Shown: positions 20,605 through 59,157, numbered from the stretch's first letter. The stretch is DNA of 64,000 nucleotides from Candidatus Avibacteroides excrementipullorum (GCA_018711405.1 DVIH01000088.1:26633-90632); one strand, 5' to 3'. Made by a program: numbers and translations. Notes: generated by a model not told the origin, from the sequence alone.

Positions 20605-20689
20605 GATATACGCCATACCGACCGATGATCGGCTCGGTCTCCGGTCATTATCGGCTCGGTCTCAGTTGAAGATCGAGCCGATCTTTTTT
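20605..20689. repeat. 22-nt-phased intergenic repeat array A (4 units)
   Basis: Cores are at 20605 GATATACGCCATA, 20627 GATCGGCTCGGTC, 20649 TATCGGCTCGGTC and 20671 GATCGAGCCGATC. Spacing is exactly 22 nt. The last two units form a 9-bp hairpin (ATCGGCTCG/CGAGCCGAT) followed by T6. Confidence 0.9.
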
Positions 20690-20765
20690 CACGTTCTCTC
20701 AGTTCTTCATAACATGCAGTCATACAAGCAGAAACGAATATCGCCGTCCACATGCAAGAAACAAC

Positions 20766-20801
20766 AAAAAAATCCAGCCGGACCGACCGACTGGATTTTT
20801 T
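20766..20801 (-). terminator. putative (bidirectional) intrinsic terminator after pnp
   Basis: The structure is A7-ATCCAG, a 13-nt loop, then CTGGAT-T5. On the minus strand it lies 23 nt downstream of the pnp stop and ends in a T-run. It is flanked by A and T runs on both sides. Confidence 0.6.
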
Positions 20802-20823
20802 CTGCTATTATGCAAATCAGATC

Positions 20824-23025
20824 TTATTGCTTGTTTTCTTTATCTTTCCTTTCGCCTTTTCCGCGACGATTGTCATTCTTACGCTCAGGTTTCTTTTCCT
20901 CATATCCTTCCGGTTTCGGGAGGAGAGCCTTTCTCGAAAGTTTGAACTTGCCTGTCTTCGGGTCTATCTCCAGCAGTTTCACTTCCACTTCATCGCCTTC
21001 CTGAAGTCCTGTCTCTTCCATAGTCTCGAATCTCTTCCAGTCTATTTCGGATATGTGCAACAGTCCGTCCTTGCCAGGCAAGAACTCAACGAATGCGCCA
21101 TACGGCATGATGGAACGAATCTTTCCTTTGTAGACCTCTCCCACTTCGGGTATCGCCACGATAGCCTTGATCATCTTTATCGCCGCTTCGATGCTTGCCT
21201 TATTGGAAGCTGCCACCTCTATGCGCCCTATATTGTCTATTTCCTCTATCGTAACGATAGCTCCCGACTCTTCTTGTATGCCTTGTATTATCTTTCCGCC
21301 GGGACCTATCACAGCTCCTATAAACTCTTTAGGAATCTCCATAGTCTCTATGCGCGGAGCATTCTCCTTGAGTTCCGCACGCGGTTCGGCTATGGTTTCG
21401 GTCAGTTTGCCGAGAATGTGCATACGTCCTTCCCTTGCCTGAGCCAGCGCTTTTTCGAGTATATCGAACGACAGTCCGTCTACCTTGATATCCATCTGAG
21501 TGGCAGTGATACCGTCTTTGGTACCCGTCACCTTGAAGTCCATGTCTCCCAAGTGGTCTTCATCGCCGAGTATGTCTGAAAGCACAGCGTATTTGTCTTC
21601 TCCTGCGTTCTTTATAAGACCCATCGCAATGCCCGATACCGGCTTTTTGATAGGCACGCCCGCATCCATGAGGGCAAGCGTTCCGGCACATACGGTGGCC
21701 ATCGATGACGAGCCGTTTGACTCGAGGATATCAGACATCACTCTTATGACATAAGGATAATTTTCGGGAATCATGCCTTTCAGCGCACGCCATGCCAGAT
21801 GTCCGTGCCCTATTTCGCGTCTGCCCACGCCGCGCTGTGCCTTTGCCTCGCCTGTAGAGAACGGCGGGAAATTGTAATGGAGCAAAAATCTTTCCTTGCC
21901 CTGATTGAGCACATCGTCTATTATCTTTTCGTCCATCTTCGTGCCCAATGTGACTGTAGAGAGCGACTGTGTTTCGCCGCGTGTGAAGATTGCAGAACCG
22001 TGAGGATAAGGCAATGCGCTGACTTCGCACCATATAGGTCTTATTTCCGTTGTCTTCCTGCCGTCCAGACGTTTGCCTTCATCGAGTATGCAACGGCGCA
22101 TGGCTTCTTTCTCCACATCATGATAATAACGGTCGATCAGAGGGCCTTTGGTCTCAAGTTCTTCTTCCGTATATTGCGCCTTGAATTCATCTCTTATGGC
22201 ATCGAAAGCATCCTGGCGCGCATGTTTGTCTCTGTTGCCGCTCTCGGCTATTGCATAAGCTTTGGCGTAGCATGCCTCATGCACAGCCTTGCGCAGGTCT
22301 TCATCGTTTTCTTCATGGCAATATGTCCTCTTCACAGTCTTGCCCACAGCTTCCATCAGTTCCATCTGAGCCTTGCATTGCGGCTTTATGGCTTCATGGG
22401 CAGCTTTCATGGCTTCAAGAAGGTCTGCTTCGGAAACTTCCTTCATCTCGCCTTCCACCATCATGATGTTGTCATAAGTAGCGCCGACCATAATGTCCAT
22501 ATCGGCCTGCTCAAGCTGCTGGAAAGTCGGGTCAATGACAAATTTACCGTCTATCCTTGCAACCCTTACTTCAGAGATAGGGCCTCCGAAAGGAATATCG
22601 CTCACGGCCAAAGCAGCAGATGCTGCAAGTCCGGCCAAAGCATCGGGCATATCTACCCCGTCTGCGGAGAACAATATGATATTTACATAGACTTCAGCGT
22701 GGAAGTCATCCGGGAACAGCGGTCTCAACGCCCTGTCCACAAGACGGCAAGTCAGGATTTCATAATCGGAAGCACGTCCTTCACGGCGTGTAAATCCACC
22801 GGGAAAACGTCCGAACGCTGAAAATTTCTCTTTATACTCTACCTGAAGAGGCATGAAATCTGTACCGGGAACTGCATCTTTGGCCGCACAAACAGTAGCT
22901 AACAGGACTGTCTTGCCCATTCTTAGCACAACGGCTCCATCCGCCTGTTTTGCGAGCTTTCCCGTCTCGAGCGTGATGACACGACCGTCAGGCAGCTCGA
23001 TTGTCTTAACAATTGGGTTAATCAT
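20824..23025 (-). CDS. pnp: polyribonucleotide nucleotidyltransferase (PNPase)
   Basis: 733 aa with two RNase PH domains ([14 protein letters not shown]; [21 protein letters not shown]) plus KH and S1 domains. The C-terminus has a basic Lys/Arg-rich tail. Confidence 0.97.
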
Positions 23026-23059
23026 AAATGTTATTCTAAATTTCTCTAAAAAAATCGCA

Positions 23060-23067
23060 CAAAGATA
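23060..23067 (-). promoter_or_regulatory. candidate -7 promoter element (TATCTTTG on minus strand) for pnp
   Basis: Plus-strand CAAAGATA is minus-strand TATCTTTG, an exact TAnnTTTG match, 35 nt upstream of the pnp start. No clear -33. Confidence 0.4.
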
Positions 23068-23151
23068 TAAATTAAAAATCAGCCGACTATCTTTTCACCT
23101 GTAAAATATATATAAAAATCAAATATTTAGTCATATCGGCCGGGCGCAAAG

Positions 23152-23191
23152 AAAAAAGCCGCCGCGCAGCTTTCCACACCTGCACGACGGC
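23152..23191 (-). terminator. putative intrinsic terminator after the GH92 gene
   Basis: On the minus strand, GCCGTCGTGCAG pairs with CTGCGCGGCGGC. This is a 12-bp stem including 2 G-U pairs, with a 10-nt loop, followed by T6. It lies 24 nt past the stop. Confidence 0.6.
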
Positions 23192-23215
23192 CATCAACTT
23201 TCACGGCATGTATGC

Positions 23216-25438
23216 TCAATACCAGCAGATCTGCCCGGCACCCATTTCAAACTCCAGAGAGCCTCCCTTTGCCATATCCTCAAAGTCTATCCACCCTTTC
23301 GCATAAGGCTGCCCGTTGAGCCGGACGCTCTGTATATATTTGTTCTCGGCAGAATTGTTGCGGGCGGTTATGGTAAAGACGCCGTCACGCACTTTCAGTT
23401 CGGCCTTGTCTACTATCGGCGAGCCGAAGAAATAACGTCCGCCGGCAGGCTCCACCTGATACAGTCCCATAGCCGAAAGCACATACCATGCCGACATGGC
23501 TCCCACATCTTCATTGCCGGAAAGGCCATCGGGGCAATCATTGTACAGCGTAGTCAATATGCGGCGAATCTTATCCGCTCCTTTCCAAGGCTGCCCGGCC
23601 ATAGTATAAAAATACGTGACATGGTGGCTCGGCTCATTGCCGTGAGCATATTGCCCTATCAATCCCGATATATCGGGCGACACGTCTTCGCCCACCAAAG
23701 TGGATTCCGCCACGAACAGTGAGTCAAGCTTCTCTATAAACGCTTCTTTCGAGCCGTAACATCCCACCAGACCGTCAAAGTCGTGAGGCACAAGGAATGT
23801 GTATTGCCATGCATTGCCCTCGCAATAATCATCTTCGCGGTGTGTGGATGCAAACGGGTTGAACGGTTCGTGGAATTCACCATTAGTGCCTTTTCCCCTC
23901 ATGAAGCCTGTCGCGGGATCGAAGAAGTTCCTGTACGAATGACTCCTGTCGAGGAAATATTCATAATCATCCTCATAGCCCATGCGTTTGGCCACCTGAG
24001 CCACAGCCCAGTCGGCTATGGCATATTCCATATCGATTGCCACAGATTCGAGCATCTTGTCATAAGGGATGAAACCATATTTTTTTCTTATGTCCATGCC
24101 TCTTTCATCGAGCATTGCCGAAGTTTTCAAAGCCTCATAAGCAGCAAGCGTATCTTTCACATATCCTTTCAGCACGGCATCAGCCAAGATGCTTATGCCT
24201 GGATTGCCCACCATAGTATTGGTTTCGCAGCCCATCAGATGCCATACAGGCAACTTGCCCTGCTGTTTGTATATGTTTATGAAGGTATTCGCAATGTCGG
24301 CCATCCTTTCCGGGTGTATGATTGTCATGAGAGGATGAGCCGCACGGTATGTATCCCAGCACGACAGCGTGGTGTAGTTGACAAAACCTTCATCCTTATG
24401 CATCTTGTGGTCGGCTCCATAGTAGTCGCCGTTCACATCGCAGAACTCCGATGGAGCCACCATCGTATGGTACAGCGCAGTATAGAACACCCTCTTTGTC
24501 TTTTCGTCTGACACCTGTATGTCTATCTTGCCCAGCTCTTTGTTCCATTCCTCACGGGCAGCCTCCACAGTGGCATCGAAATCCCAGCCCGGCAGCTCCG
24601 CCTGCAAATTCATGCCGGCATTTTCTATTGAAGTGGGCGACAAAGCCACTTTCACATAGAGCGGTTCGCCTGCTTCCGTATCAAAAGAAGCACGGGCATA
24701 CAACGCCCCGCCTTTGGCATCTTTCATTCCGTCTTCTATCAGGTCAAATGATTTGAACGGGCGGGAAAACTTAGCCACGAAGAACACTTTCTGTTCGTTA
24801 GCCCAACCGGTGGAAAATCTGTATCCTTCTACCGTAACACTGTCCACGCCCGCCATATAAGTCTCGGTCGGCGCATCCCAACAACCGCCGTTCTGAAGGT
24901 CGAAGACCACTGCTGCGTCATCCGCTGTCGGGAACGTATATTTATGGAATCCGACACGCTTGGTAGCAGTCAGTTCCACATCCACGCCGTAACGCATCAG
25001 ACGGGTGGAATAATATCCCGGTCTCACTTTTTCCTTAGAGCGGTCGGAATATGACCACAATCCTGACTTTTGGTCATCCTCCGTGCCTCTGGCATATTTC
25101 ACTTCACCCACCACAGGCATGAGCGTCACATCGTTCAAGTCGCCTATTCCCGTGCCGCTCAGGTGCGTATGCGGGAAACCTATGACAGTGGAATCGCTTA
25201 TGTGATAGCCCGAAGTCCAGTCCCATTGCTGCGGGATGCTGGTAGGCCCGAGCTGCACAAAGCCGAAAGGCACGTTGGCTCCCACAAATACATGTCCATG
25301 ACCTCCGGAACCTATATAGGGGTCGACATACCGGGTGTAATCGGGCGTCTCCGACATCTGCCCCTTGTCTGTGCCGCCGCAACCGGCCAACAACAGCAGA
25401 GAGGCATACAATAATGTTTTACATGCGTTCTTTTTCAT
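23216..25438 (-). CDS. GH92 family alpha-mannosidase (lipoprotein)
   Basis: About 740 aa. GH92 hallmark segments are GNEPSHH and GNEDVGAMSAWYVLSAMG. The start at MKKNACKTLLYASLLLLAGC (signal peptide with lipobox) is preferred over the upstream in-frame start at 25468. Confidence 0.9.
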   Translation of the reverse strand: MKKNACKTLLYASLLLLAGCGGTDKGQMSETPDYTRYVDPYIGSGGHGHVFVGANVPFGFVQLGPTSIPQQWDWTSGYHISDSTVIGFPHTHLSGTGIGDLNDVTLMPVVGEVKYARGTEDDQKSGLWSYSDRSKEKVRPGYYSTRLMRYGVDVELTATKRVGFHKYTFPTADDAAVVFDLQNGGCWDAPTETYMAGVDSVTVEGYRFSTGWANEQKVFFVAKFSRPFKSFDLIEDGMKDAKGGALYARASFDTEAGEPLYVKVALSPTSIENAGMNLQAELPGWDFDATVEAAREEWNKELGKIDIQVSDEKTKRVFYTALYHTMVAPSEFCDVNGDYYGADHKMHKDEGFVNYTTLSCWDTYRAAHPLMTIIHPERMADIANTFINIYKQQGKLPVWHLMGCETNTMVGNPGISILADAVLKGYVKDTLAAYEALKTSAMLDERGMDIRKKYGFIPYDKMLESVAIDMEYAIADWAVAQVAKRMGYEDDYEYFLDRSHSYRNFFDPATGFMRGKGTNGEFHEPFNPFASTHREDDYCEGNAWQYTFLVPHDFDGLVGCYGSKEAFIEKLDSLFVAESTLVGEDVSPDISGLIGQYAHGNEPSHHVTYFYTMAGQPWKGADKIRRILTTLYNDCPDGLSGNEDVGAMSAWYVLSAMGLYQVEPAGGRYFFGSPIVDKAELKVRDGVFTITARNNSAENKYIQSVRLNGQPYAKGWIDFEDMAKGGSLEFEMGAGQICWY

Positions 25439-25474
25439 AATAATATATGTTTTATTAAAATCAATCATTGCAAA

Positions 25475-26791
25475 TCAGCTTCTACTGACAGGCAAAGGAA
25501 GCCTGCGCCACAACAAATATTCGGCAGCTCCTCTCACCGACAGATATATTATAAAGGCAAACCACAATGCATGGTTGCCCCACACATGGCGCAACGACAG
25601 GTAAACGGCGAAAAAAGCGACAGTGGCAATCATCATGGCCGTCATCATCTGCCGTGAAGCTGTGGCTCCCACAAATATGCCGTCCCAAAGGAACGCCGCA
25701 AAGCCGCAAAACGGAATGGCCACCGTCCAATAGAAATAAACGTCTGATGCGGCTATCACATCTTCATCATCGGTGAGAAGATGCAGGAAATGCTCTCCAC
25801 CCGCCGCATAAAGCAATGTAAACAAAGCCGCAATCCAGACTCCCCACACAAACAGCCTCTTCACCATGCGCCGCAGCCCCTCGCTGTCTGACGCCCCGAT
25901 AAGACGTCCCGACATGGCCTCGCCTGCATAAGCAAAGCCGTCCATTACATAGGAGAATATGGTAAACAGCTGCATCAGCAACGTATTTACAGCCAGAATC
26001 ACATCTCCCTCGCCTGCCCCTTTGGAGGTGAAAAACACCGTTACCGCTATGAGGCACAACGTGCGGAAAAATATGTCCCTGTTTATTTTGAAGAACCTGA
26101 CTATCTTCTCCCTGTCGAACACAGACCTGACGCCCACCGTCAGGCACACATCCCTGTATCCGTTGCGCCACAGCAACACTGCCATCACAGCTCCGGCGTA
26201 TTGCGCAATCAGCGTGCCGAGAGCTATGCCTTCTATCTTCATGTCTGCCGCATAGACGAACAGCAGGCTTGCTGCAATATTGACCACATTCTGGGCAATG
26301 GCTATATACATGGGGTAATGAGCATTCTGCATGCCTATGAACCATCCCGTGAAAGCATAAATCGACAGTACGGCAGGAGCGCCCCAGATACACACGTTGA
26401 AATAAGCCTCGGCAAGCGATTTCACTTCTGCCGGAGGGGCTATCACGGCAAAAGCAGCTGCGCTTACGGGATATTGCAACAGCAAAAGGGCAACGGCCAT
26501 CGCCAATCCGGTCACCACCGACCTGGCGAGCATCAGCGTTGTCTCGGCGAAATCCCGGCGGCCGTAAGCCTGCGAAGTCATGCCGCTCGTTCCCATCCTA
26601 AGGAAGCCGAACAGCCAGTACATGATATTGAACAACAGTCCGCCCACAGCCACCGCACCTATGTACGATGCCGCGCCCAGATGTCCGGCAATGGCAACAT
26701 CCACCAGCCCCAACAACGGCACCGTGATGTTCGACACTATGGCCGGAACCGCTATCTTCAATATCTTCCTGTCTGTAACTCCCAACCTCAT
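25475..26791 (-). CDS. MATE family efflux transporter
   Basis: 438 aa with about 12 predicted TM helices. The N-terminal PAIVSNITVPLLGLVDVAIAGHLG is typical of the MATE/NorM family. Confidence 0.88.
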   Translation of the reverse strand: MRLGVTDRKILKIAVPAIVSNITVPLLGLVDVAIAGHLGAASYIGAVAVGGLLFNIMYWLFGFLRMGTSGMTSQAYGRRDFAETTLMLARSVVTGLAMAVALLLLQYPVSAAAFAVIAPPAEVKSLAEAYFNVCIWGAPAVLSIYAFTGWFIGMQNAHYPMYIAIAQNVVNIAASLLFVYAADMKIEGIALGTLIAQYAGAVMAVLLWRNGYRDVCLTVGVRSVFDREKIVRFFKINRDIFFRTLCLIAVTVFFTSKGAGEGDVILAVNTLLMQLFTIFSYVMDGFAYAGEAMSGRLIGASDSEGLRRMVKRLFVWGVWIAALFTLLYAAGGEHFLHLLTDDEDVIAASDVYFYWTVAIPFCGFAAFLWDGIFVGATASRQMMTAMMIATVAFFAVYLSLRHVWGNHALWFAFIIYLSVRGAAEYLLWRRLPLPVSRS

Positions 26792-26833
26792 CGGCTCACT
26801 TCATTTTCCGGCTGCAAATATAATCCATTTCAT

Positions 26834-28042
26834 TCATTCTTTCTGCCGCAACAGGACTTGCGTCATGCAATGCGCGGCCCCGTAGCCTTTTATCAGATTG
26901 TCGAGCCTTACATAGTCTGCTCTCACGCCACAGTCGTCCAACGCCTTGCGCAGATAGTCCGGCTGCCCGTCTACCGCCATTATGCGTCTCCTGCCCACAC
27001 ACAGGAAATTGGTGCCATACCGTTTCCTGTCGGCGCTCTTTACAGCTATAACCTTCACGCCGCACGAAGCGAGAAACGACATGAAAGGCACATTGGCCCC
27101 GACTCGCTCATAACCTCCGCCGCCGCGCTCATATAAATCCGCACGGAGAAACAGCCTGCTGTCTTTCGCTGCTTTCATCCTGTCTTCGTCCATCACTGCA
27201 AGGTCTTCATCGGCCACATTGAAGTAGGTGTCGAGATGCATCTGCTCCTGAGAGCAAAGACTGTCTTTGACCACCACAACCTTGTCATGCCCCATCACTC
27301 CGGCAGACATCAATTCGTTTACGGCTTCCTGAGTAGTCCTCAGCCCGCGCCCCACAAAGGCAAATTTCCCGAACGGGATATAATCTCCGCCCTCCATGAA
27401 AGAACCGTTGCCGCACAGCCTGTGCACGGGGTTCATGCCCAACCGGCGCAGGCAGAACTCCACGATGTCGGCCTCCCTGTTGCGCTGGGGAGAATACATC
27501 TTTGAGACGACAGGGCCGCACGGCGTCACAATCATCTGGTCGCGCATGAAAAACATATTGACCAGCGGCTTGTGCACTATCCTCGCTTTCCAACCGGTAT
27601 TGCGATCCATCTTCCTGAGATGCACCACAGGCCTGTTGAGAATCACCCTGACAAGGTCTGTCTGAGACATCTTCCGCAAGACCTCCAGCTTGTACTCATC
27701 CACGCCGCAGCGGTCGTCGTGCGAGAGTTCAGTCTTGTCATAAGTCAGAAAACGCGATGCGAAATCCACAAGTTCATCGTGCGGCGTCCCTTTCAGCACG
27801 TCCCTCACGGTGATGACCTCCGCGCCGGCCTCACGCTTCAGCACGGCGATGTAATTTTCATGCTCGGCAATGGCCGAATCCATGTCCATACAGTCTTCAA
27901 ACAGAGCGGCGGCAGGATGCAGGATGCCGTTGAAAAGTTCCTCACCCGGCGTGTGCATCAATATGAGGCAGGCCTTGTGATATTCCGCTTCGGGAAACGC
28001 CGCACCCTCGTGCCTGCCACGCGGCTGCAAACTTGCTTCCAT
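26834..28042 (-). CDS. arginine deiminase family (guanidino-group modifying enzyme superfamily) protein
   Basis: 402 aa. It has an ArcA-like N-terminal pattern (HTPGEEL, LFED, EHENY) and a C-terminal catalytic-Cys motif GAAHCMTQ. Confidence 0.65.
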   Translation of the reverse strand: MEASLQPRGRHEGAAFPEAEYHKACLILMHTPGEELFNGILHPAAALFEDCMDMDSAIAEHENYIAVLKREAGAEVITVRDVLKGTPHDELVDFASRFLTYDKTELSHDDRCGVDEYKLEVLRKMSQTDLVRVILNRPVVHLRKMDRNTGWKARIVHKPLVNMFFMRDQMIVTPCGPVVSKMYSPQRNREADIVEFCLRRLGMNPVHRLCGNGSFMEGGDYIPFGKFAFVGRGLRTTQEAVNELMSAGVMGHDKVVVVKDSLCSQEQMHLDTYFNVADEDLAVMDEDRMKAAKDSRLFLRADLYERGGGGYERVGANVPFMSFLASCGVKVIAVKSADRKRYGTNFLCVGRRRIMAVDGQPDYLRKALDDCGVRADYVRLDNLIKGYGAAHCMTQVLLRQKE

Positions 28043-28157
28043 ACAATTACGGCTTTTTTATTACGCCATAAATATAGGTAAAAAACGGCATTCCGCAAAA
28101 CGCCGCAGCCGCCTGCGCTTTCAGACCCCACAGGAGTGTTTGAAAGCCCACCGAAAA

Positions 28158-28241
28158 GACCGGCACGATCCCCGCCCGGGATATACGCCATCCCGGGCAA
28201 AGATGGCGCACATCCCCGCCCGTTACCGAGCCGATCTTTTT
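28158..28241. repeat. 22-nt-phased intergenic repeat array B (4 units)
   Basis: Cores are at 28158 GACCGGCACGATC, 28180 GATATACGCCATC, 28202 GATGGCGCACATC and 28224 TACCGAGCCGATC, followed by T5. Units 2 and 3 form an imperfect 15-bp inverted repeat. Confidence 0.88.
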
Positions 28242-28392
28242 CACAGGCAGAAAAGCCCCAAAAGACTGCAACGGGAATGAAACAAGTTATTAACAAAACG
28301 GCAACTTATCAACACTTTAACAAAAGAGCCGTCTTTTCATTTCACGCATATCGCTTTTATTTTGTTACTTCGCAGCGGATAAACTAATCAAC

Positions 28393-29163
28393 ATGGGAAA
28401 AATCATTGCATTGGCAAATCAGAAAGGCGGAGTGGGCAAGACCACATCATCCATCAACCTTGCCGCCTCGCTCGCCACATTGGAGAAAAAAGTGCTTTTA
28501 GTCGATGCCGACCCCCAGGCCAACGCTTCGTCGGGACTCGGCGTAGACATCAGACAGGCGGAAACCACCATCTATGAATGTCTGATAAACGACATCGACA
28601 TCAGGGAGGCCATCTACACCACCGACATCAAGACACTCGATGTAGTCCCCTCGCACATAGACCTGGTAGGCGCAGAGATAGAAATGCTGCAAATGGAAAA
28701 CAGGGAAAAAGCCATGTCGCGCCTGCTGGAACCTATGAGAAACGAATATGACTATATCCTCATGGACTGCTCGCCGTCATTGGGACTCATCACCGTCAAC
28801 TGCCTCACGGCAGCCGACTCGGTAATCATCCCCGTGCAATGCGAATATTTCGCACTCGAAGGCATAAGCAAATTGCTCAACACCATAAAGATAATAAAAT
28901 CGAAACTCAACCCGAAAATCGACATAGAAGGATTCCTGCTCACCATGTACGACTCCAGGTTGAGAAGCGCAAACCAGGTAGTGGAAGAAGTCCGCAAACA
29001 CTTCCAGGAACTTGTGTTCAAAACCATAATACAACGAAACGTGCGCCTGAGCGAGGCTCCAAGTCACGGAATCCCCGTCATACTCTACGATGCAGACTCC
29101 ATAGGAGCCAAAAACTACCTCGCACTGGCACAGGAAGTAATCAACCGCAACGAAAAACATTGA
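28393..29163 (+). CDS. parA: ParA/Soj chromosome partitioning ATPase
   Basis: 256 aa with the deviant Walker A motif NQKGGVGKTT and MinD/ParA family layout. Confidence 0.95.
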   Translation: MGKIIALANQKGGVGKTTSSINLAASLATLEKKVLLVDADPQANASSGLGVDIRQAETTIYECLINDIDIREAIYTTDIKTLDVVPSHIDLVGAEIEMLQMENREKAMSRLLEPMRNEYDYILMDCSPSLGLITVNCLTAADSVIIPVQCEYFALEGISKLLNTIKIIKSKLNPKIDIEGFLLTMYDSRLRSANQVVEEVRKHFQELVFKTIIQRNVRLSEAPSHGIPVILYDADSIGAKNYLALAQEVINRNEKH

Positions 29164-29169
29164 CCACAC

Positions 29170-32840: not shown

Positions 32841-32943
32841 GATACCATCCGCCCCCGCCGGGGATCGGCTCGATCTCCGGCAAAGATGTACGCCATCTTC
32901 ACCCGGGATGTGCGCCATCTTGGCCGAAGATGGCGCACATCCC
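32841..32943. repeat. 22-nt-phased intergenic repeat array C (4 units + degenerate 5th)
   Basis: Cores are at 32863 GATCGGCTCGATC, 32885 GATGTACGCCATC, 32907 GATGTGCGCCATC and 32929 GATGGCGCACATC. A degenerate unit lies at 32841. There is a perfect 17-bp inverted repeat: GGGATGTGCGCCATCTT (32905-32921) with AAGATGGCGCACATCCC (32927-32943). Confidence 0.9.
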
Positions 32944-37349: not shown

Positions 37350-37456
37350 GATATACGCCATCCCCGGCGGGGATCGAGCCGATACTTGCCCGGTATCGGC
37401 TCGGTCATGACAAAAGATCGGCTCGGTCTCCAAGCGAGATCGAGCCGATAATTTTT
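37350..37456. repeat. 22-nt-phased intergenic repeat array D (5 units)
   Basis: Cores are at 37350 GATATACGCCATC, 37372 GATCGAGCCGATA, 37394 TATCGGCTCGGTC, 37416 GATCGGCTCGGTC and 37438 GATCGAGCCGATA, followed by ATTTTT. Hairpins are CGAGCCGATAC/GTATCGGCTCG (11 bp) and ATCGGCTCG/CGAGCCGAT (9 bp). Confidence 0.9.
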
Positions 37457-50136: not shown

Positions 50137-50177
50137 GGAGCTGCTTATCGTAACACATAAGCCGCTCCTTTTTCTTT
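50137..50177 (+). terminator. putative intrinsic terminator after the bamA-skp-skp block
   Basis: GGAGCTGCTTAT (50137-50148) pairs with ATAAGCCGCTCC (50157-50168). This is a 12-bp stem with one mismatch and an 8-nt loop, followed by TTTTTCTTT. Confidence 0.6.
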
Positions 50178-50183
50178 ACACAA

Positions 50184-51029
50184 ATGGACAACCAGCGAAA
50201 CATGACAGCTCCCGGACCCATAGGCATATTCGACTCCGGCTATGGAGGCCTGACAATACTCCACAAGATAAGGGAAAAAATGCCACAATACGACTATATA
50301 TATCTGGGCGACAACGCCCGCGCACCATACGGCCCTCGCTCGTTCGAGATAGTCTACAGATTCACACTCCAGGCGGTGGAAAAACTCTTCAGCATGGGAT
50401 GCCACCTCGTGATACTCGCCTGCAACACCGCATCGGCAAAAGCATTGAGAAGCATACAGCAACACGACCTGCCGCTCATAGACCCGGCCAGAAGAGTACT
50501 CGGAGTAATCCGCCCCACAGTGGAAGCCATAGACGGCATGACCCGGACGGGACATGTGGGAGTCCTCGCCACATCGGGCACGGTGAAATCGCAATCGTAT
50601 GCCCTCGAAATACACAAACTCTACCCCGACATCACCGTGACAAGCCTGGCATGTCCCATGTGGGTGCCGCTCATAGAGTATGGAGAATATGAAAACGAAG
50701 GGGCAGACTTCTTCATAAAAAAATACATAGATGCCATATTCGCACAAGACAACCTCATCGACACGCTCATACTGGGATGCACGCACTACCCCATCGTGGC
50801 AGACAAGATAAAAAGACACCTGCCCGGCGGAGTACGTCTGGTGCAACAGGGAGAGCATGTGGCCGAAAGCCTGGCAGACTATCTGAAGAGACATCCCGAT
50901 ATGGACAGCAAATGCACCAAAAACGGACACACGCAGTTTTTCACCACAGAAAACGAAGAAAAATTCGCCGAATCGGCATCCGTTTTCCTCAAAACAGAAA
51001 TCAACGTCAAAGGCATAGAACTGGAATAG
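50184..51029 (+). CDS. murI: glutamate racemase
   Basis: 281 aa. Motifs FDSGYGGLT, LACNTAS and GCTHYP contain the two catalytic Cys. Confidence 0.95.
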   Translation: MDNQRNMTAPGPIGIFDSGYGGLTILHKIREKMPQYDYIYLGDNARAPYGPRSFEIVYRFTLQAVEKLFSMGCHLVILACNTASAKALRSIQQHDLPLIDPARRVLGVIRPTVEAIDGMTRTGHVGVLATSGTVKSQSYALEIHKLYPDITVTSLACPMWVPLIEYGEYENEGADFFIKKYIDAIFAQDNLIDTLILGCTHYPIVADKIKRHLPGGVRLVQQGEHVAESLADYLKRHPDMDSKCTKNGHTQFFTTENEEKFAESASVFLKTEINVKGIELE

Positions 51030-51058
51030 GAAAAAGCCGCACAAACCATCGGGGAAAA

Positions 51059-51141
51059 GATGGCGCACATCTCCGGCAAAGATGTAGGACATCTTCGGGC
51101 AAGATCGAGCCGATCCCGGGCGAAGATGGCGCACATCCCCG
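51059..51141. repeat. 22-nt-phased intergenic repeat array E (4 units)
   Basis: Cores are at 51059 GATGGCGCACATC, 51081 GATGTAGGACATC, 51103 GATCGAGCCGATC and 51125 GATGGCGCACATC. Linkers are tccggcaaa, ttcgggcaa and ccgggcgaa. Confidence 0.9.
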
Positions 51142-51170
51142 CGGAAGACAGAAAACACCTGAGCAGGCGC

Positions 51171-51203
51171 ATAAAAAAGGCAGGGGCTTGCGCAGCCCCC
51201 GCC
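51171..51203 (-). terminator. putative intrinsic terminator after the LRR/GLUG gene
   Basis: GGCAGGGGCT (51179-51188) pairs with AGCCCCCGCC (51194-51203). This is a 10-bp stem with one mismatch and a 5-nt loop. On the minus strand it is followed by T6 (plus-strand A6 at 51173-51178), 29 nt past the stop. Confidence 0.6.
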
Positions 51204-51231
51204 TCAGAAAATAACCCTAAAGATTACATGC

Positions 51232-53319: not shown

Positions 53320-53325
53320 AAAGCT

Positions 53326-55482
53326 TTATTTTAATATTTTACATTTGTATATATTGCCATCCTCATCTTCGCAAGACAGTATGTAAAGACCGTCGGCAAG
53401 ATGGGAAATGTCTGCATATCCGGCATCACACGAAAACCTGAGCACTGCTTTGCCGTCGGAAGCGAACAATGCAGCCTCTTTCACCGAAATGCCGTTGAAT
53501 CTCAATATCCCGTCATGATAAAAGACCATGCCGCCTGCTATGGCAGACTCCACCGATTTCGCATCATCTATATACAATGCGTAATTCAGGATCTGGCTCA
53601 TAGTGTTGCCTGCGTCATCGGAAGCATCTATCTTCAAATCAAACCACCCGTTTGCGCTCTTGGCATCTATCCCGTCCAAAGAAGATGTATAATAATAACC
53701 GAAGACATATTCCCTGAACATATCTTCATGCTCGGTCAGCTTCAGTTCAGTCCATTCCTCAGTACCATTGGGACGATAATACAGTGTGAAAATGGCGGGA
53801 GTGGCCTTAAAGCAGTTGTCCGCATAGTTGAAATCCCCACCGGCGATACATATCTCGCCCTCATTGGTTTTCAAGCGGTAAGCCGGAAGTCCGGAGCCAT
53901 CATGGATCTGCAACATCTGGAGAGTGGGTGAAGAACAATCCTCGCTATCCAAATCGAAATTGAATACAGCCTCGCTTTCGGACTGTATCTCTCCATCGAT
54001 CAGCACATCCGAGTTTCTCAGGGTCAGTTCCATCCTTCCTTTTGCCAGTCCCGACATGAACAGTTCCGAGCAAAAGTCATAAATGCCTGTATACTCAATT
54101 CCGTCAGACAATAACTTGCCATCTCCCCTCAACTCAAAAGCGATGCCAGCGCCACCGGTCATAATTTCTCCATACTGTCCTATCCATGTGGGTGTCAGGA
54201 CAAACTGATACTCAGTCAATGCTGTCATAAGGCTGACAAAAGGTGCGGAGTCCATCATAACAGGAGCTTCGGCCAGTTCATCCTTTATGAAACTGAACTC
54301 CTCATGCGCCGGCAAAAATACGCAACTTCCGTCTTCCCGCATCTGGAATCCGGCATCACCATTCGCCGAATGTCCTGTGTTGACATATCTGACACGGCCT
54401 CCGGCTGTGACAAGATTGCCCGGACTGATGGTATTGAATATGATTGTGTCGCTATACACCATCCCGAATCCAAGATCATAGTTTTTCACAAAGTAGTCAT
54501 CCGCAAACGCGGCATTGGCTACCACGTCCAGACCTTGCCCTCCATCTGATTCTACATTATCCAAATACATGCCCACATTCCGTTTCACGGATTTGCTGTT
54601 GAGAATTAGACCAACATCCCTCAGTCCGCCCCACAGGATGTCGAGCCTTACTCCCGACCACATCAGAGTATGCTCACCGCTGTCGGGAGACACACCGAAT
54701 TGTTCTTCATGATAAACATATTCATCAGGATGGTTGGCAACCTCTTTGACAGATGTGCCTCTCGTAGACATCTTGTTGATGTAGTATTCGCCATCCTTTT
54801 CCGTCACACGTACCTGAGCCAATATGTATTTGTCGCTGACATTGCTTATTACAAAGTCGAAAGGATTGTCCAGTTCCGATCCTTCCGTATAATATATCCA
54901 ATCGCCGAAATATGTAGACACTACGCCATAGTCTTCATGGATGAGAAGCCTTTCAAGGAACATATAGTCGGAAGTGCCTTCCTCCATCACATTCCCGTTT
55001 GCATCCATCATGTCAGGGCGCATCAGCACTCCGTCCTTGTCATACCCGTTGAACACTACTTTGGTATCAGCATCGGCTGTGGAGAAAGACAAAGAAATAT
55101 CGCCCTTTACCTCTACGCCTTCCTTAATCACACAAGCCACAACCCTGTCTGCCCTATGACATTCATAATAGAAATCATAGACGCCTTCAGACAAGCGGAA
55201 CACCGGTTGTTCTCCGTTCATAAGGAATATCCGCTCAAAACAGTCGCCATTGTAAGCACTCAGATATGCCGAGACATCGTCTGCATCTTCTGTGGTTATG
55301 TCGCAAGTCACCACATACATGTTTTCGGCCGGAACACAATGTTTCTCCTGCGGTGAAGCCAGTTTCATCTCAGACAAGCGGACATTGCCGGCGCATTTCT
55401 GCTGCCATGATTCACTCCTCGTCTGGGCAGAGACTCCCGCTGCAAGCAAAACAGCAACAGCAAAACATAAGAATCTGTTCAT
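53326..55482 (-). CDS. large hypothetical secreted protein with T9SS CTD-like C-terminus
   Basis: It starts at MNRFLCFAVAVLLAAGVSAQ (signal peptide), 12 codons inside the listed ORF. I recognise no domain in the body. The C-terminus ...LADGLYILSCEDEDGNIYKCKILK is T9SS-CTD-like. Confidence 0.7.
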   Translation of the reverse strand: MNRFLCFAVAVLLAAGVSAQTRSESWQQKCAGNVRLSEMKLASPQEKHCVPAENMYVVTCDITTEDADDVSAYLSAYNGDCFERIFLMNGEQPVFRLSEGVYDFYYECHRADRVVACVIKEGVEVKGDISLSFSTADADTKVVFNGYDKDGVLMRPDMMDANGNVMEEGTSDYMFLERLLIHEDYGVVSTYFGDWIYYTEGSELDNPFDFVISNVSDKYILAQVRVTEKDGEYYINKMSTRGTSVKEVANHPDEYVYHEEQFGVSPDSGEHTLMWSGVRLDILWGGLRDVGLILNSKSVKRNVGMYLDNVESDGGQGLDVVANAAFADDYFVKNYDLGFGMVYSDTIIFNTISPGNLVTAGGRVRYVNTGHSANGDAGFQMREDGSCVFLPAHEEFSFIKDELAEAPVMMDSAPFVSLMTALTEYQFVLTPTWIGQYGEIMTGGAGIAFELRGDGKLLSDGIEYTGIYDFCSELFMSGLAKGRMELTLRNSDVLIDGEIQSESEAVFNFDLDSEDCSSPTLQMLQIHDGSGLPAYRLKTNEGEICIAGGDFNYADNCFKATPAIFTLYYRPNGTEEWTELKLTEHEDMFREYVFGYYYTSSLDGIDAKSANGWFDLKIDASDDAGNTMSQILNYALYIDDAKSVESAIAGGMVFYHDGILRFNGISVKEAALFASDGKAVLRFSCDAGYADISHLADGLYILSCEDEDGNIYKCKILK

Positions 55483-55505
55483 AGTCGTTTCCTTCTCCGT
55501 TCCTT

Positions 55506-56801
55506 TTATTGTTTGCAAATTTTACCAGACAATACTCTGTCACCTGCCTTTACATTATATATATATACGCCCGATGGGAAAAAAGACATGTCGGCTTCAG
55601 TACATTGGGCATTCAGCAGCACTTTGCCGGTCACATCGGAGATGACTATGGCAACGTCTCCCGAGAGTCCGCCTATGCTCAAGACATTGTTGTCGAACCT
55701 CACACCTGCATCTTCAGGCATGGCATCCTTTACCGAACTCCTGAGCAGCTTGTCGGCAACGTATACCCCGCCTTTGCTGTCATCCACATTGAACACCGTT
55801 GCGAAAATCTTGTCGTCAAGCATCGTGAGATTCCTGACCATCTGCGAATAGTAATCCACGCCACCGGCAGTGAGGTCTATAGGCAGACCTTCCGAATACT
55901 GCTTCCAGGTATAGCCCTCGTCAGTGGTGTAGATGACCCCTGTCTCCGTAGTTCCGGCATAGAGTATGCCTTGCTCCTCATCGCCTACCAAAGCCCAAGC
56001 ATTGTTGTCTCTCATGCTCAAAGCCCAGCCATTATCATCTTTTTCCGAATAGGTGGGCGGTGTCAATCTCTCCCAAATGAATATGTTGTTCACATCTGAG
56101 CGTTCCATAAACGGTTCGCGGCTCGCGCTGTATCCAACGAATACCCTGTCATTGAACAAGACTGAAGCTACGGCAAAAAACGTGTCCTCCTTTATCAATA
56201 TCCAATTATTCTCACTTTCATTGTAAATAAAGAAACCGTGTGAAGCTATGGCCAACAAGGCATCGTTTACAACTTCAAAGCACATCGTGTTACGTCCGTT
56301 GATAGTCCGATCATAATCTGCCGTCATGGACAACGTATCGGTAAGTACCCACTTTTCACCCATATTTTCCGTATAGACCACGCCGGAGCCATAAATGGAT
56401 GCGAAGACCTTGCCGTGATACTCTATCATGTCCCTTATCTCGCCCACCTCCTTGTCAAACAGGTTGTCGCACCGGAGCATTTCCCACGTCAACCCATCAT
56501 CATTGCTGCGTGCTATGCGTCCTTGCGTACCCCCGGCAAACAGATAGCCGCCTGCTTCGCAGAAAGCAGTGAAACGGTAGTCGGGAAGCTGAGTCTTTGT
56601 CCACGACTCACCTGCATCGGTACTGATATACAAGCCAGCCATCTCTACATCATACGAATATTCCGATACGAGGAGATTGCCGCCGCTTGTGGCGAAAATC
56701 GTAAATACCTCTCCTGTCGGAAAACTTGTCTTCTTCCACTGCGCATGAACTGCCGCAAAGGAGAAAAGAAGCACTGAAAACAATAAGTAAATCTTTTTCA
56801 T
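55506..56801 (-). CDS. BNR/Asp-box beta-propeller protein with T9SS CTD-like C-terminus
   Basis: It starts at MKKIYLLFSVLLFSFAAVHAQ. Asp-box-like motifs are STDAGESWTK, SNDDGLTWEM and TTDEGYTWKQ. The C-terminus is SDVTGKVLL...GVYIYNVKAGDRVLSGKICKQ. Confidence 0.75.
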   Translation of the reverse strand: MKKIYLLFSVLLFSFAAVHAQWKKTSFPTGEVFTIFATSGGNLLVSEYSYDVEMAGLYISTDAGESWTKTQLPDYRFTAFCEAGGYLFAGGTQGRIARSNDDGLTWEMLRCDNLFDKEVGEIRDMIEYHGKVFASIYGSGVVYTENMGEKWVLTDTLSMTADYDRTINGRNTMCFEVVNDALLAIASHGFFIYNESENNWILIKEDTFFAVASVLFNDRVFVGYSASREPFMERSDVNNIFIWERLTPPTYSEKDDNGWALSMRDNNAWALVGDEEQGILYAGTTETGVIYTTDEGYTWKQYSEGLPIDLTAGGVDYYSQMVRNLTMLDDKIFATVFNVDDSKGGVYVADKLLRSSVKDAMPEDAGVRFDNNVLSIGGLSGDVAIVISDVTGKVLLNAQCTEADMSFFPSGVYIYNVKAGDRVLSGKICKQ

Positions 56802-57072
56802 AATAACAGTAATATTTTGGTTTAACAATAGATTTATATGCTTTATTCGTTTCATTCACAAGGGGGCAGACAGGCAGGTTTCTGAAGATTATTAGAAACA
56901 CACCCAACCTTTAATATCACTAACCGTCCCTAAAGTTATCGAATATCACGAAAGGTTTTTCACCACCCCTGTCATATTTATGTATATTTAACACTATGCA
57001 ATCGGATTTAAATTCCACGGAAGAACTGCACAACAAATCATGCCTGAAGACATGAACTTACAATATAATCGC

Positions 57073-57080
57073 TATATTTG
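57073..57080 (+). promoter_or_regulatory. candidate -7 promoter element (TATATTTG) for the DUF2851 gene
   Basis: Exact TAnnTTTG match. It overlaps the TTG at 57078 that the ORF track uses as a start, which argues that the real start is downstream. Confidence 0.4.
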
Positions 57081-57113
57081 TTGAAAGATTGTAAAAGTAA
57101 AAAGACGACAACA

Positions 57114-58382
57114 GTGGAACATGTCATTCATTACATCTGGAAGCACAAGATACTGAAACCGGACCTTAGAACCACATCGGGAGAGAAAGTGGAAGTGATA
57201 GATCCCGGCAACTACAACCGGGATGAAGGTCCAGACTTCTTCAACGCGAAGATAAAAATAGGAAACACAGTGTGGGCCGGAAACGTGGAAATACACGAAA
57301 ACGCATCGGACTGGTACCGCCACAACCACCATAACAACAAGGCATACGACAACGTGATACTGCATGTGTGCCTGAACTGCGACTGCGAAGTGACAAGACC
57401 CGACGGCACTGCCATGCCGGCACTGAAGATAGAATGCCCGGAACATGTGAAACAGAACTATGACACGCTAAAAAGCAACGACATATTCCCCGCATGCCAC
57501 ACCGTGATAGAAAAAATCCCGCACATCATGCGTCGCAGTTGGCTCACATACCTGCAAAGCGAAAGACTCGAACAGAAAGCCGGAGCCATAAGCACCATGC
57601 TGGAAAAACAGCACGGAAACATGGAAGACACCTTTTTCATAATGCTGTCGCGCAACTTCGGATTCGGTGTCAACAACGACGCATTCCAGCAATGGGCGGC
57701 ATCGCTCCCGTTGCGAGCCGTAGACAAACACCGGGACAACCTGATGCAGGTGGAAAGCATCTTTTTCGGAATGGCAGGACTGCTCGATGCAGCCGATGGA
57801 GATCCTTACCGCGACAGACTGAAAGAAGAGTTCGCATATCTGTCGCACAAATTCTCGCTCGCCGTCCCCGCCCCCCCGCAATGGAAACTGCTGCGCATGC
57901 GCCCCGACAACTTCCCGCACATCAGGATAGCAAGGTTGGCAGCCATATATCACGCCCATGCCAACCTGTTCTCACGCTTCATGACGGCAAGCTATCCGGA
58001 GGGGATGCAGGAACTGCTCGATGTGAAACTGTCAGACTACTGGGACACACATTACACTTTCGGCCGCGAAACGGGAAACAGCCGCCGACACGTGAGCCGC
58101 CAAACCATAGACCTCATAGCCATAAACACCATAGTGCCGTTCATGTACGTATACGGCAAACAGAAAGGAGCGGAAGACACCGATGCGAAAATAGAGAAAA
58201 TCACGGAAGCCATCCCGCCGGAAAACAACCACATCACCCGCTCATGGAGCAAGACAGGCATAGCCATAGACAACGCAGCCGACTCGCAAGCCATAATACA
58301 ACTGACAAAAAACTACTGCATGCAGAGAAAATGCCTCTTTTGCAGATTCGGATACGAATTTTTGAAACACAAGGAATCATGA
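57114..58382 (+). CDS. DUF2851 family protein
   Basis: The N-terminal HYIWKHKIL and C-terminal CLFCRFGYEFLK motifs are typical of DUF2851. The start is uncertain. The in-frame GTG at 57114 is favoured because the listed TTG at 57078 lies inside the promoter motif. Confidence 0.75.
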   Translation: MEHVIHYIWKHKILKPDLRTTSGEKVEVIDPGNYNRDEGPDFFNAKIKIGNTVWAGNVEIHENASDWYRHNHHNNKAYDNVILHVCLNCDCEVTRPDGTAMPALKIECPEHVKQNYDTLKSNDIFPACHTVIEKIPHIMRRSWLTYLQSERLEQKAGAISTMLEKQHGNMEDTFFIMLSRNFGFGVNNDAFQQWAASLPLRAVDKHRDNLMQVESIFFGMAGLLDAADGDPYRDRLKEEFAYLSHKFSLAVPAPPQWKLLRMRPDNFPHIRIARLAAIYHAHANLFSRFMTASYPEGMQELLDVKLSDYWDTHYTFGRETGNSRRHVSRQTIDLIAINTIVPFMYVYGKQKGAEDTDAKIEKITEAIPPENNHITRSWSKTGIAIDNAADSQAIIQLTKNYCMQRKCLFCRFGYEFLKHKES

Positions 58383-59032
58383 ACAGAAAACATCTCGAAG
58401 TAAAAAGGATAAACGCCGGACACACTGATCCGGCACACATCCATGACCTGCTGGAGCAGGAAAACACAGGCTGGAACATGATAGACACCGTGAACTGGCC
58501 GGAATACCCCTACAAACCCGATGTCAGATTCCGCATGGCACACAACGGCAAAGCCATAATGCTGGAATATGAAGTAAACGAAAAGACATCGAAAGCCGAA
58601 TACGGCAAAGACAACGGCAAAGTATGGACAGACTCATGCGTGGAATTTTTCACCGGCATAGGCGGAGACGGCATCTACTACAATCTGGAGGCCAACTGCA
58701 TCGGCACCGTGCTGCTCGGCATGGGTCCGCAAAGGGAAGGCCGGGAAAGAGCCGAAGAAGAAACCACATCGCTCATCGGGAGGCATTCCACTTTGGGCAA
58801 AGAGACTTTCGCCGAACGGGAGACAGGCCTGTGGCGGCTCTCCCTCCACATACCGGTCGAAGCATTCTGCAAACACCGCATTGCCGACCTTTCGGGCATT
58901 ACGGCAGGAGCCAACTTCTACAAATGCGGCGACGGACTGAGCCGCCCGCACTTCCTGTCGTGGAATCCCATCAATGCCGCAAAACCAGACTTCCACCGCC
59001 CCGACTTTTTCGGCACGATACAGTTTCTCTGA
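58379..59032 (+). CDS. carbohydrate-binding family 9 (CBM9/DOMON)-like protein
   Basis: This is the last 217 codons of the 512-aa ORF listed at 57494-59032. The ATG at 58379 overlaps the DUF2851 stop (ATGA). The sequence MNRKHLEVKRI...WPEYPYKP...YYNLEANCIGT...FYKCGD resembles CBM9-like proteins commonly annotated next to DUF2851. Confidence 0.65.
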   Translation: MNRKHLEVKRINAGHTDPAHIHDLLEQENTGWNMIDTVNWPEYPYKPDVRFRMAHNGKAIMLEYEVNEKTSKAEYGKDNGKVWTDSCVEFFTGIGGDGIYYNLEANCIGTVLLGMGPQREGRERAEEETTSLIGRHSTLGKETFAERETGLWRLSLHIPVEAFCKHRIADLSGITAGANFYKCGDGLSRPHFLSWNPINAAKPDFHRPDFFGTIQFL

Positions 59033-59078
59033 CACACCCGCACAGCGCCATTCCGGGAGCGAAAAGACACCCGCCCGG

Positions 59079-59157
59079 GATGTGCGCCATCTTTGCCCAA
59101 GATGTCCTACATCTTTGCCAGGGATGTACGCCATCTTCACCCGGGATGTGCGCCATC
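59079..59157. repeat. 22-nt-phased intergenic repeat array F (4 units)
   Basis: Cores are at 59079 GATGTGCGCCATC, 59101 GATGTCCTACATC, 59123 GATGTACGCCATC and 59145 GATGTGCGCCATC. Linkers are tttgcccaa, tttgccagg and ttcacccgg. It has the opposite orientation to array E. Confidence 0.9.

Follow-up and report, generated by a model that had tools for sequence, protein, structure and literature searches.

A 22-nt-phased, REP/BIME-like family of palindromic intergenic arrays in Candidatus Avibacteroides excrementipullorum

Candidatus Avibacteroides excrementipullorum is an uncultured member of the Bacteroidaceae from the chicken gut. A stretch of its DNA, the 64-kb window analysed here, carries short tandem repeats at six intergenic loci, and the question is what kind of element these arrays are and what they might do. 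We give a probability of about 0.5 to the reading that they form a recently expanded family of modular, palindromic elements between genes, specific to this lineage and present in multiple copies, similar to REP/BIME and used in part as terminators. The family looks new and seems to be a so far undescribed equivalent of E. coli REP/BIME repeats; by analogy the arrays are best explained as functional analogues of enterobacterial REP/BIME mosaics and pneumococcal BOX elements.

Detection and anatomy of the arrays

The pattern GAT-N7-ATC recurring at +22 gave 10 two-core matches in the 64-kb window, with 0 expected, and 0 matches across 100 dinucleotide-preserving shuffles. TRF, run independently, picked out arrays A, C, E and F, each with a period of 22. 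A detector that chained cores with at most three mismatches from the three core types at exactly 22 nt returned exactly the six arrays over the 64 kb with no extra matches, and, applied to unrelated bacterial DNA (819 kb), the same detector found no chains of three or more units. Solo cores (at most one mismatch) were absent from the window outside the arrays. Two further arrays lie just beyond the window edges, which brings the total to 8 in ~79 kb; every array has 4-5 units, giving an element of ~90-110 nt.

Array A: 20605..20683, + strand; four units (1b-F, 2F, 2F, 2R)
Array B: 28158..28236, - strand; four units in the window, five in most strains
Array C: 32863..32941, + strand; four units (2F, 1F', 1F, 1R)
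Array D: 37350..37450, + strand; five units (1b-F, 2R, 2F, 2F, 2R)
Array E: 51059..51137, - strand; four units (1R, 3R, 2R, 1R), each of them R when read on the + strand
Array F: 59079..59157, + strand; four units (1F, 3F, 1F', 1F)

All core starts listed in an earlier note on this DNA were correct, the six arrays being in exact 22-nt phase; a degenerate unit that it added to array C at 32841 hardly resembles any core and is better taken as flank. Because all eight arrays lie within ~40 kb of parAB, it is from assembly breaks only that we infer genome-wide dispersal. Six short-read assemblies break inside the fourth unit of array E, with contigs ending there.

Each 22-nt unit consists of a 13-nt mini-hairpin core (GATSK-loop-MSATC) and a 9-nt linker. 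The half-sites depend on core type (GATCG, GATGT or GATGG), GAT/ATC alone being invariant. Taken alone, a core makes a 13-nt hairpin whose stem has 4-5 bp; 35-nt palindromes arise only from inverted pairs. Eight separate loci draw on one set of three core types and of linkers, with types mixed within arrays, and the 35-nt block reported for arrays C and F is indeed identical in both. Comparison of the core types reveals compensatory differences at positions 4/10 (G-C vs C-G) and 5/9 (T-A vs G-C). Cores had been said to be used in both orientations: two states do exist, but they are told apart by the central 3-5 nt alone, and the oriented units are better described as hairpin-loop flips. Core state is weakly tied to linker type.

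Gene context, folding and predicted termination

An array is present at 4 of 6 convergent junctions vs 4 of 53 other junctions (Fisher p=0.002), and 7 of the 8 begin 1-60 nt past a stop codon. In none of the public contigs of the species do the arrays overlap a called gene, in agreement with the non-coding nature proposed for them earlier. Array A starts 29 nt past the yqeY stop at the convergent junction with pnp, and array D 1 nt past a stop codon at another convergent junction. Array E, 29 nt past a racemase stop, is likewise at a convergent junction, where a separate canonical terminator at 51177-51205 belongs to the opposing gene. Array C is found 59 nt past a dedA-like stop, upstream of the relA promoter, and array F 47 nt past a stop codon at a co-directional junction, with no T-run after it. 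Array B is located between the divergent starts of an ADI-like gene (28042) and parA (28393), not at gene ends, and there is nothing obvious to terminate there.

The suggestion that the arrays do not share a single RNA fold was half right, yet all of them, including the 'direct' arrays E and F, fold very stably on both strands (z -2.5 to -7.3). In array C (-61.8 kcal/mol, z -7.3) units 3 and 4 make a perfect hairpin of 15-18 bp, while array B is one long hairpin with an A-run and a T-run at its flanks, its - strand far more stable than its + strand (-60.2 vs -38.2 kcal/mol). RNA function offers no reason for a linker of exactly 9 nt.

A terminator scan over 20-40 kb ranked a site in array D (37417-37449) best and one in array A (20650-20682) second. 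The latter is a 13-bp hairpin formed by the last two units of array A and followed by TTTTTT. Array D contains two hairpins of 13-14 bp, the second of which, at 37417-37449, has an A-tract 5' of it and AATTTTTAT 3' of it and is therefore terminator-like both ways. A G+C-rich hairpin with a T-run, downstream of a gene, is thus found in arrays A (T6) and D (AATTTTT); array B has T-runs on both strands and no upstream gene, and arrays C, E and F have no T-runs. From these features we predict that A, D and probably B serve as transcription terminators.

The REP/BIME-like reading would work as follows. Arrays just downstream of stop codons, mostly of convergent genes, would be transcribed into 3' ends, where their RNA is computed to form very stable hairpins. 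A type-2 inverted pair with A/T tracts is predicted to act as a one- or two-way intrinsic terminator in A, D and probably B, and the remaining arrays, by analogy with REP, would probably be 3'-exonuclease barriers or insulators. Several observations count against this reading: arrays C, E and F lack T-runs, array B stands between gene starts, the eight arrays are all close to parAB, and termination and stabilisation are themselves predictions. Moreover, the asymmetry of G.U vs A.C does not consistently favour the sense strand, which is favoured by A and D, the opposite strand being favoured by B and most strain variants of C.

Strain variation and relatives

Array length differs among strains in 22-nt steps, with 4 or 5 units in B and 4 or 2 in F. 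Array F elsewhere reads 1F-2F-1F-1F or has just two units, and, depending on the strain, its second unit is type 3 or type 2, swapped in register, in both cases with flanks ~99% identical. Array C is hypervariable, with 15% segregating sites vs 4% in its flanks. Array A was found in 10/10 other strains, its paired cores having a compensatory G-C (GACC/GGTC) in those 10 vs G.T in the window, and in array D the GATA/TATC ends of paired cores are likewise a compensatory pair. Over the arrays, segregating sites number 7/325 in cores vs 13/171 in linkers (p=0.0065), which makes cores 3.5 times less variable.

The 22-nt register, put forward before as the conserved property, is the one most strictly kept: strains differ by steps of 22 or 44 nt, and the register is also kept in a distant lineage with unrelated linkers. 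This lineage, a 62%-GC Bacteroidales, carries an identical type-2 core in 22-nt phase; it comes from the same chicken study. The 22- or 44-nt indels and in-register unit replacements between strains point to arrays that may change as copies exchange whole units through recombination or gene conversion, and hairpin loops may flip through intrastrand template switching; together these processes would keep the 22-nt register. Under the REP/BIME-like reading, cores are maintained by selection or repeated copying, as seen from their being less polymorphic than linkers and from one being identical in the distant lineage. New loci might be colonised with the help of a RAYT-like HuH enzyme or a different recombinase, or through ectopic conversion of terminators already in place.

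Arrays of this family are missing from the sequence covered in the nearest relatives (28 kb) and in Mediterranea (22 kb). At the array B locus of the sister species there is a 217-nt spacer that contains no array, and after yqeY (the array A position) this species carries a different, GTAG-headed REP-like family. Upstream of parA in Mediterranea, at the array B position, there is a 22-nt-phased mosaic unrelated in sequence. No array matched Rfam at gathering score or E<=1, and no counterpart of the family was found in plasmids, viral contigs or the literature, which bears out the earlier impression that no described family matches.

Known systems and alternative explanations

REP/BIME mosaics are the closest analogy, as had been suggested. 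Like them, the arrays are high-copy, extragenic, imperfect palindromes in mosaic clusters, with both unit orientations and recurring short linkers; they prefer co-directional and convergent 3' ends, and their stable RNA hairpins would be able to end or protect transcripts. Unit number varies by strain in both, and species-specific families turn over between relatives. Strict RAYT-linked membership nevertheless fails on the GT[AG]G head: array cores have no 5' GT[AG]G or CGTC head, and GTAG is found only within type-3R cores, across stem and loop. The unit hairpin is 13 nt vs 20-40 nt in REP, and the arrays keep a strict 22-nt register without solo units, their 'orientation' being a loop flip only.

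The BOX elements of Streptococcus pneumoniae have the structure boxA-boxB(n)-boxC, with modules of 45-59 nt and distinct end modules. They too are modular and intergenic, with internal tandem modules that vary in number, stable structure and no coding capacity, whereas the arrays have no leader or tail modules and place several interchangeable unit types in one 22-nt frame. DNA uptake sequences of Neisseria and Pasteurellaceae are 10-13-nt words recognised in trans, mostly solitary, unphased and frequent inside genes, whose inverted pairs downstream of genes double as terminators. The arrays share with them a conserved word of this length and inverted pairs downstream of genes as putative terminator hairpins, but array cores are confined to phased arrays. 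Iterons and plasmid centromeres (the 22-bp iterons of R6K, parC of R1 and of pSK41) are single-locus systems beside the gene of their binding protein; they have short helically phased repeats, and array B lies just upstream of the parAB operon, but the arrays occupy at least 8 loci, mostly gene 3' ends. CRISPR arrays, in which identical 23-50-nt repeats alternate with unique spacers of about their own length, were rejected, the 'repeat' here being 13 nt and the linkers 9 nt and recurrent, with 4-5 units at many loci, and the gene tables around the arrays hold no cas genes.

BrickBuilt, a MITE of Porphyromonas gingivalis, has 23-nt bricks at ~19 loci and is species-restricted; it has no spacer, one repeat type in 1-23 copies, measured promoter activity, and terminal inverted repeats on its long leader and tail segments (PMC4596501). 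It is likewise a dispersed, species-restricted Bacteroidales intergenic element built of short tandem bricks in strain-variable number, but the arrays, with period 22, a core plus linker, several unit types and no leader or tail, do not belong to it. One RAYT subclass, 2.6, is particular to Bacteroidetes, and its REPs are atypical (PMC6006769). Most of the published ones are single hairpins of 24-49 nt, many of them with a head of the GCTAG/GCTG type, and the cores do not look like them.

Several observations would also suit phased double-stranded DNA sites for a dimeric, sequence-specific protein reading GAT...ATC half-sites, an explanation that we consider unlikely. The 22-bp spacing, two helical turns, would set the sites on one face for cooperative binding, and the protein might be nucleoid-associated, topology-related (gyrase-like, as at BIME-2) or a domain-organising factor; to our knowledge no candidate for the cores is known. 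The register is exact whatever the unit type and the linker sequence, also between lineages; neither loop state is preferred, as a symmetric dimer would lead one to expect; and core sequence is conserved beyond its pairing, given the identical 13-mer in the 62%-GC lineage and a polymorphism below that of linkers. Arrays at convergent junctions, where positive supercoils build up, and the Mediterranea mosaic upstream of parA would fit as well. Against such sites stand half-sites that vary by type, the T-runs after hairpins in A, B and D, and the compensatory changes between adjacent inverted cores, which argue for intrastrand pairing. A ParB variant is weak: the cores do not resemble parS, the window has no site with <=3 mismatches to the 16-bp parS palindrome TGTTNCACGTGAAACA, and the canonical parS sites that Bacteroides uses are in other parts of the genome (PMC10197239).

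It is similarly improbable that each array is a ~90-110-nt non-autonomous transposable element (MITE- or REPIN-like) with its enzyme encoded elsewhere, the 22-nt substructure being internal anatomy. The narrow size range of 4-5 units would agree with this, as would the restriction of the family to one species and its absence from the nearest relatives, and the same core in an unrelated member of the gut Bacteroidales from the same chicken study fits horizontal transfer. Inverted flanks are present at some copies only, as CCCGCCCGG ... CCGGGCGGG or, in the L146 and L133 copies of array F, as ccctttcgg ... ccgaaacgg, and ends are inconsistent between copies. RAYT subclass 2.6 exists in Bacteroidetes, but its REPs are unlike the cores. 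No target-site duplication was seen at the arrays, and there was no presence/absence polymorphism among 5-21 strains per locus. The lack of a within-species empty site at array loci, and of a transposase or RAYT (Y1 HuH, PF01797) in the gene tables of ~80 kb around the arrays, weighs against the REP/BIME-like reading too.

More doubtful still is the proposal that a novel trans-acting factor recognises the GAT-N7-ATC mini-palindrome and builds or occupies arrays by a two-turn (22-nt) ruler, the whole system moving horizontally between unrelated chicken-gut Bacteroidales. We retain it because the identical core has unrelated linkers in the 62%-GC lineage and the array upstream of Mediterranea parA is unrelated in sequence. 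The factor might be a hairpin-acting nuclease or recombinase, or a dimeric DNA-binding protein. If this were true, 22-nt-phased mini-palindrome mosaics would be a distinct class of bacterial genome element, beyond REP.

Plain minisatellites, formed by independent and functionless local slippage of a 22-nt unit at unrelated loci, would account for unit-number polymorphism in multiples of 22, but this very improbable reading is largely refuted because units are shared between loci (core types and linkers across all eight, the 35-nt block in C and F), and position is non-random, cores are conserved relative to linkers, and mixed unit types and flipped loops go beyond what slippage can produce. 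Other 22-nt tandem repeats, which occur in metagenomes and in Mediterranea, would fit this reading.

Detection and anatomy of the arrays

On the best-supported reading, the arrays belong to a new and recently expanded repeat family, modular, palindromic and intergenic; they are situated at the 3' ends of genes, most of all where two genes converge, and a subset is shaped as intrinsic terminators. In behaviour they resemble REP/BIME or BOX elements, and their computed folds are stable hairpins. Bacteroidales are a dominant gut order and, to our knowledge, short interspersed palindromic repeats, well studied in Proteobacteria, are almost undescribed in them.

Each region was re-read, and the core starts listed in the earlier note for six arrays were all correct; a 'degenerate unit' that it had added to array C at 32841 was unconvincing. 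The exact 22-nt phase was borne out, with 10 GAT-N7-ATC pairs at +22 in the window versus 0 in 100 shuffles, and TRF reported period 22 at four arrays. A detector chaining cores with <=3 mismatches from the three core types at exactly 22 nt recovered the six arrays and nothing more in the 64-kb window, where a scan found no core with <=1 mismatch outside the arrays. As a negative control, the detector was run on 819 kb of unrelated bacterial DNA (loci from unrelated phyla, being 111 chance matches to GATGGCGCACATC-N9-GAT, 16 specified bases) and returned zero chains of at least 3 units. Gene calls on public contigs of the species put every array outside genes, in agreement with the non-coding status first proposed. 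The host is Candidatus Avibacteroides excrementipullorum (Bacteroidaceae, chicken gut): proteins encoded in the window are identical to NCBI proteins of a MAG bearing that name, whose proteins include HIS10776.1 and HIS10777.1. Syntenic contigs of the host species from many chicken-gut assemblies extend the window by ~15 kb and contain two further arrays, G and H, giving 8 arrays in ~79 kb.

Arrays of the host species (window positions for A to F, positions local to public contigs for G and H)
20605-20683: array A, downstream of yqeY and facing pnp
28158-28236: array B, upstream of parA
32863-32941: array C, upstream of relA
37350-37450: array D
51059-51137: array E
59079-59157: array F
L145 13344 and L132 1365: array G, next convergent junction to the right of the window
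L147 3939: array H, left of the window

All 8 arrays lie within ~40 kb of parAB in the ~79 kb covered. Six short-read assemblies terminate within array E, and these assembly breaks are indirect evidence that its sequence recurs elsewhere in the genome. Arrays of this kind interrupt short-read assemblies, and both MAG binning and strain typing can be misled by them.

The 22-nt unit consists of a 13-nt core and a 9-nt linker, and is repeated 4-5 times per array. The core types are mini-hairpins, and the changes that distinguish them, at positions 4/10 and 5/9, are compensatory.

Core mini-hairpins
Type 1: GATG-TGCGC-CATC
Type 2: GATCG-GCT-CGATC
Type 3: GATGT-CCT-ACATC

The cores had been described as occurring in both orientations; two forms do exist, the difference being an inversion of the central 3-5 nt only, and the register is therefore unmoved by a change of orientation. 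The linkers likewise have two forms, TTTGCCCGG-like and CCGGGCAAA-like, which are mutual reverse complements and are loosely coupled to the core state. The symmetry of cores and linkers thus creates dyad axes about every 11 nt in each array, making pairing possible in several registers. Every array, the 'direct' E and F among them, has a very stable computed fold on both strands (-38 to -67 kcal/mol; z-scores -2.5 to -7.3). Adjacent inverted type-2 cores pair as stems of 13-14 bp whose ends are compensatory (GATA/TATC in array D), and one pair of array A is G.T in the window versus G-C (GGTC/GACC) in 10/10 other strains examined.

Genomic position and terminator-like sites

Junctions between genes were typed from public gene calls, and arrays were concentrated at convergent ones (convergent versus the rest, Fisher's test p=0.002).

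Junctions occupied by an array
Convergent: 4/6
Divergent: 1/5
Co-directional: 3/48

The two array-free convergent junctions have spacers of just 58-67 nt, and 7 arrays start 1-60 nt past a stop codon. In a consensus terminator scan, the last hairpins of arrays D and A ranked as the top two terminator-like sites of the 20-40 kb interval.

Terminator-like hairpins within arrays
37417-37449: last hairpin of array D, followed by AATTTTTATC
20650-20682: last hairpin of array A, followed by CTTTTTTCAC

The array D hairpin is also preceded by an A-tract, with a short T-run on the opposite strand, and therefore looks bidirectional. Array B forms a long hairpin between an A-run and a T-run, is located between two gene starts and folds at -60 kcal/mol on the - strand versus -38 on the other. 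No T-runs occur at arrays C, E and F. The arrays are probably transcribed and may terminate transcription or protect RNA; the family would supply ready-made modules, predicted to be terminators and insulators, at gene ends of a gut Bacteroidaceae species.

Two neighbouring sites were also recorded. The canonical intrinsic terminator of pnp (20766-20802) adjoins array A and, with its A-run, hairpin and T-run, could act both ways; the LRR-protein gene opposite array E has its own canonical intrinsic terminator at 51177-51205, and every gene at these two convergent junctions is therefore provided with a hairpin of its own. A promoter role was rejected on inspection of the sequence, in which no Bacteroides-type TAnnTTTG motif was found within the arrays; the promoter-like motif of relA lies outside array C. 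A ParB/parS centromere was also considered. None of the Bacteroidaceae loci retrieved has a canonical parS close to parAB, even when <=3-4 mismatches are allowed (window positions 28042-28393; loci L159, L160 and L161), and a Hi-C study has shown that Bacteroides use canonical parS sites elsewhere in the genome (PMC10197239); this interpretation was therefore dropped.

Variation among strains

Array B has 4 units in the window and in one further contig (L118) and 5 in all other strains, with linked SNPs in the flanks; these unit counts come from short-read assemblies, and the linked SNPs argue for real haplotypes. Array F has three forms, within flanks that are ~99% identical.

Forms of array F (core type by number; F, loop state; F', variant)
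1F-3F-1F'-1F: three strains
1F-2F-1F-1F: L145
Two units: L133

The forms of B and F indicate that arrays change by whole units and swap units, always in register, and unit number could serve as a strain marker. Hypervariability is seen in arrays C and F, where 15-18% of sites segregate versus 4-5% in the flanks, and not in A, B, D or E. In cores 7/325 sites segregate and in linkers 13/171, a 3.5-fold lower frequency in the cores (p=0.0065). Loop flips may proceed via template switching, and gene conversion may take place between array loci.

Core conservation, exact spacing and indifference to loop state would all be explained if the arrays were phased double-strand sites at which a dimeric protein binds one face of the helix. 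We regard this as unlikely. Half-sites that differ, compensatory pairing of adjacent cores and the presence of T-runs are harder to reconcile with it. It is similarly doubtful that each array is a mobile element of the MITE or REPIN kind: sizes in a narrow range, inverted flanks at some copies and a patchy distribution are compatible with this, but the loci examined have no target duplications, empty sites or transposase, and no strain among those compared entirely lacks a given array. Independent slippage at each locus is highly improbable and largely excluded by units common to several loci.

Two other tandem features were seen in the same contigs. The interval between typA and the radical-SAM gene carries a single tRNA gene in the window (3865-3939) and two tandem copies in another strain, L147 (9720-9900), a 105-nt insertion that reflects either a copy-number difference or assembly collapse. 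In its 3' part, the ftsA ORF (17374-18828) contains an A/G-rich, low-complexity, AAGAAA-like tandem stretch at 18680-18737 (period 6-15 by TRF), which is unrelated to the arrays.

Known families, relatives and distant lineages

The earlier suggestion that this is not a described family was upheld: there was no Rfam match even at E<=1, and databases and literature gave the same answer. Keyword searching for repeat elements of Bacteroidales returned nothing relevant, the core strings were absent from the literature on bacterial repeats (the sole match was unrelated), and no similar arrays were found in plasmids by BLAST or in viral contigs by scans. BrickBuilt of P. gingivalis was ruled out by period and architecture (PMC4596501). 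Among the 'atypical' REPs of RAYT subclass 2.6 in Bacteroidetes, single hairpins of 24-49 nt predominate, and many bear heads of the GCTAG/GCTG type (PMC6006769); these REPs were set aside as their sequences are unlike the GAT-N7-ATC cores.

The modular palindromic family is best read as species-specific, replacing another repeat family found in the sister species. In the nearest relatives (YqeY and RelA 83% identical) no arrays were found in 28 kb, orthologous A and B sites included; these genomes carry another palindromic family, headed by GTAG/GTAC (CTGTAGAGACG...CGTCTCTACAG). One copy, a tandem duplication of 56 nt, follows yqeY immediately, at the position of array A, and two sister species thus fill one intergenic niche with unrelated repeat families.

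Copies of the GTAG/GTAC-headed family (CTGTAGAGACGTAGCATGCTACGTCTC...) in sister-species loci
L129 10545-10710
L129 14274-14330
L159 1-48

A metagenome scan with a degenerate three-core pattern, in a collection from which the host species is absent, gave 7 loci, of which 5 were unrelated 22-nt tandem repeats. The other two contained type-2 cores; only about 1 in 256 pattern-allowed cores would match type 2, and 2 of 7 such matches are therefore not chance. A 62%-GC lineage, confirmed as Bacteroidales by a small SRP RNA of that order together with typical Pfam domains, has a six-unit array with the exact type-2 core (GATCGGCTCGATC / GATCGAGCCGATC) in both loop states and 22-nt phase. It is the sole array in the 21 kb examined, and its linkers are unrelated and AT-richer.

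Type-2 arrays outside the host species
L126 7481-7603 and L143 9240-9362: 62%-GC Bacteroidales, downstream of an HU-like (HU-HIG) gene; L143 and the host stem from one chicken-gut study
L122 1092-1148: third contig, type-2 core at 22-nt spacing, with yet other linkers

Across these lineages, core and spacing are conserved and linker sequence is not. An exact spacing rule and a core shared by distant lineages may point to a specific recognition factor, which would be searchable.

In 22 kb of Mediterranea massiliensis (RelA 71% identical) the GAT-N7-ATC family is absent. At ~450-700 nt upstream of parA, a relative position matching that of array B, its loci carry a run of ~11 units in strict 22-nt phase (L161 5360-5600; L160 5431-5628), which shares no sequence similarity with that family and matches nothing in Rfam. 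The run mixes unrelated unit families, such as ACGCAGCCGTATCYGT+6 and AGTAG-N4-CTACT mini-palindromes, and is hypervariable between two strains.
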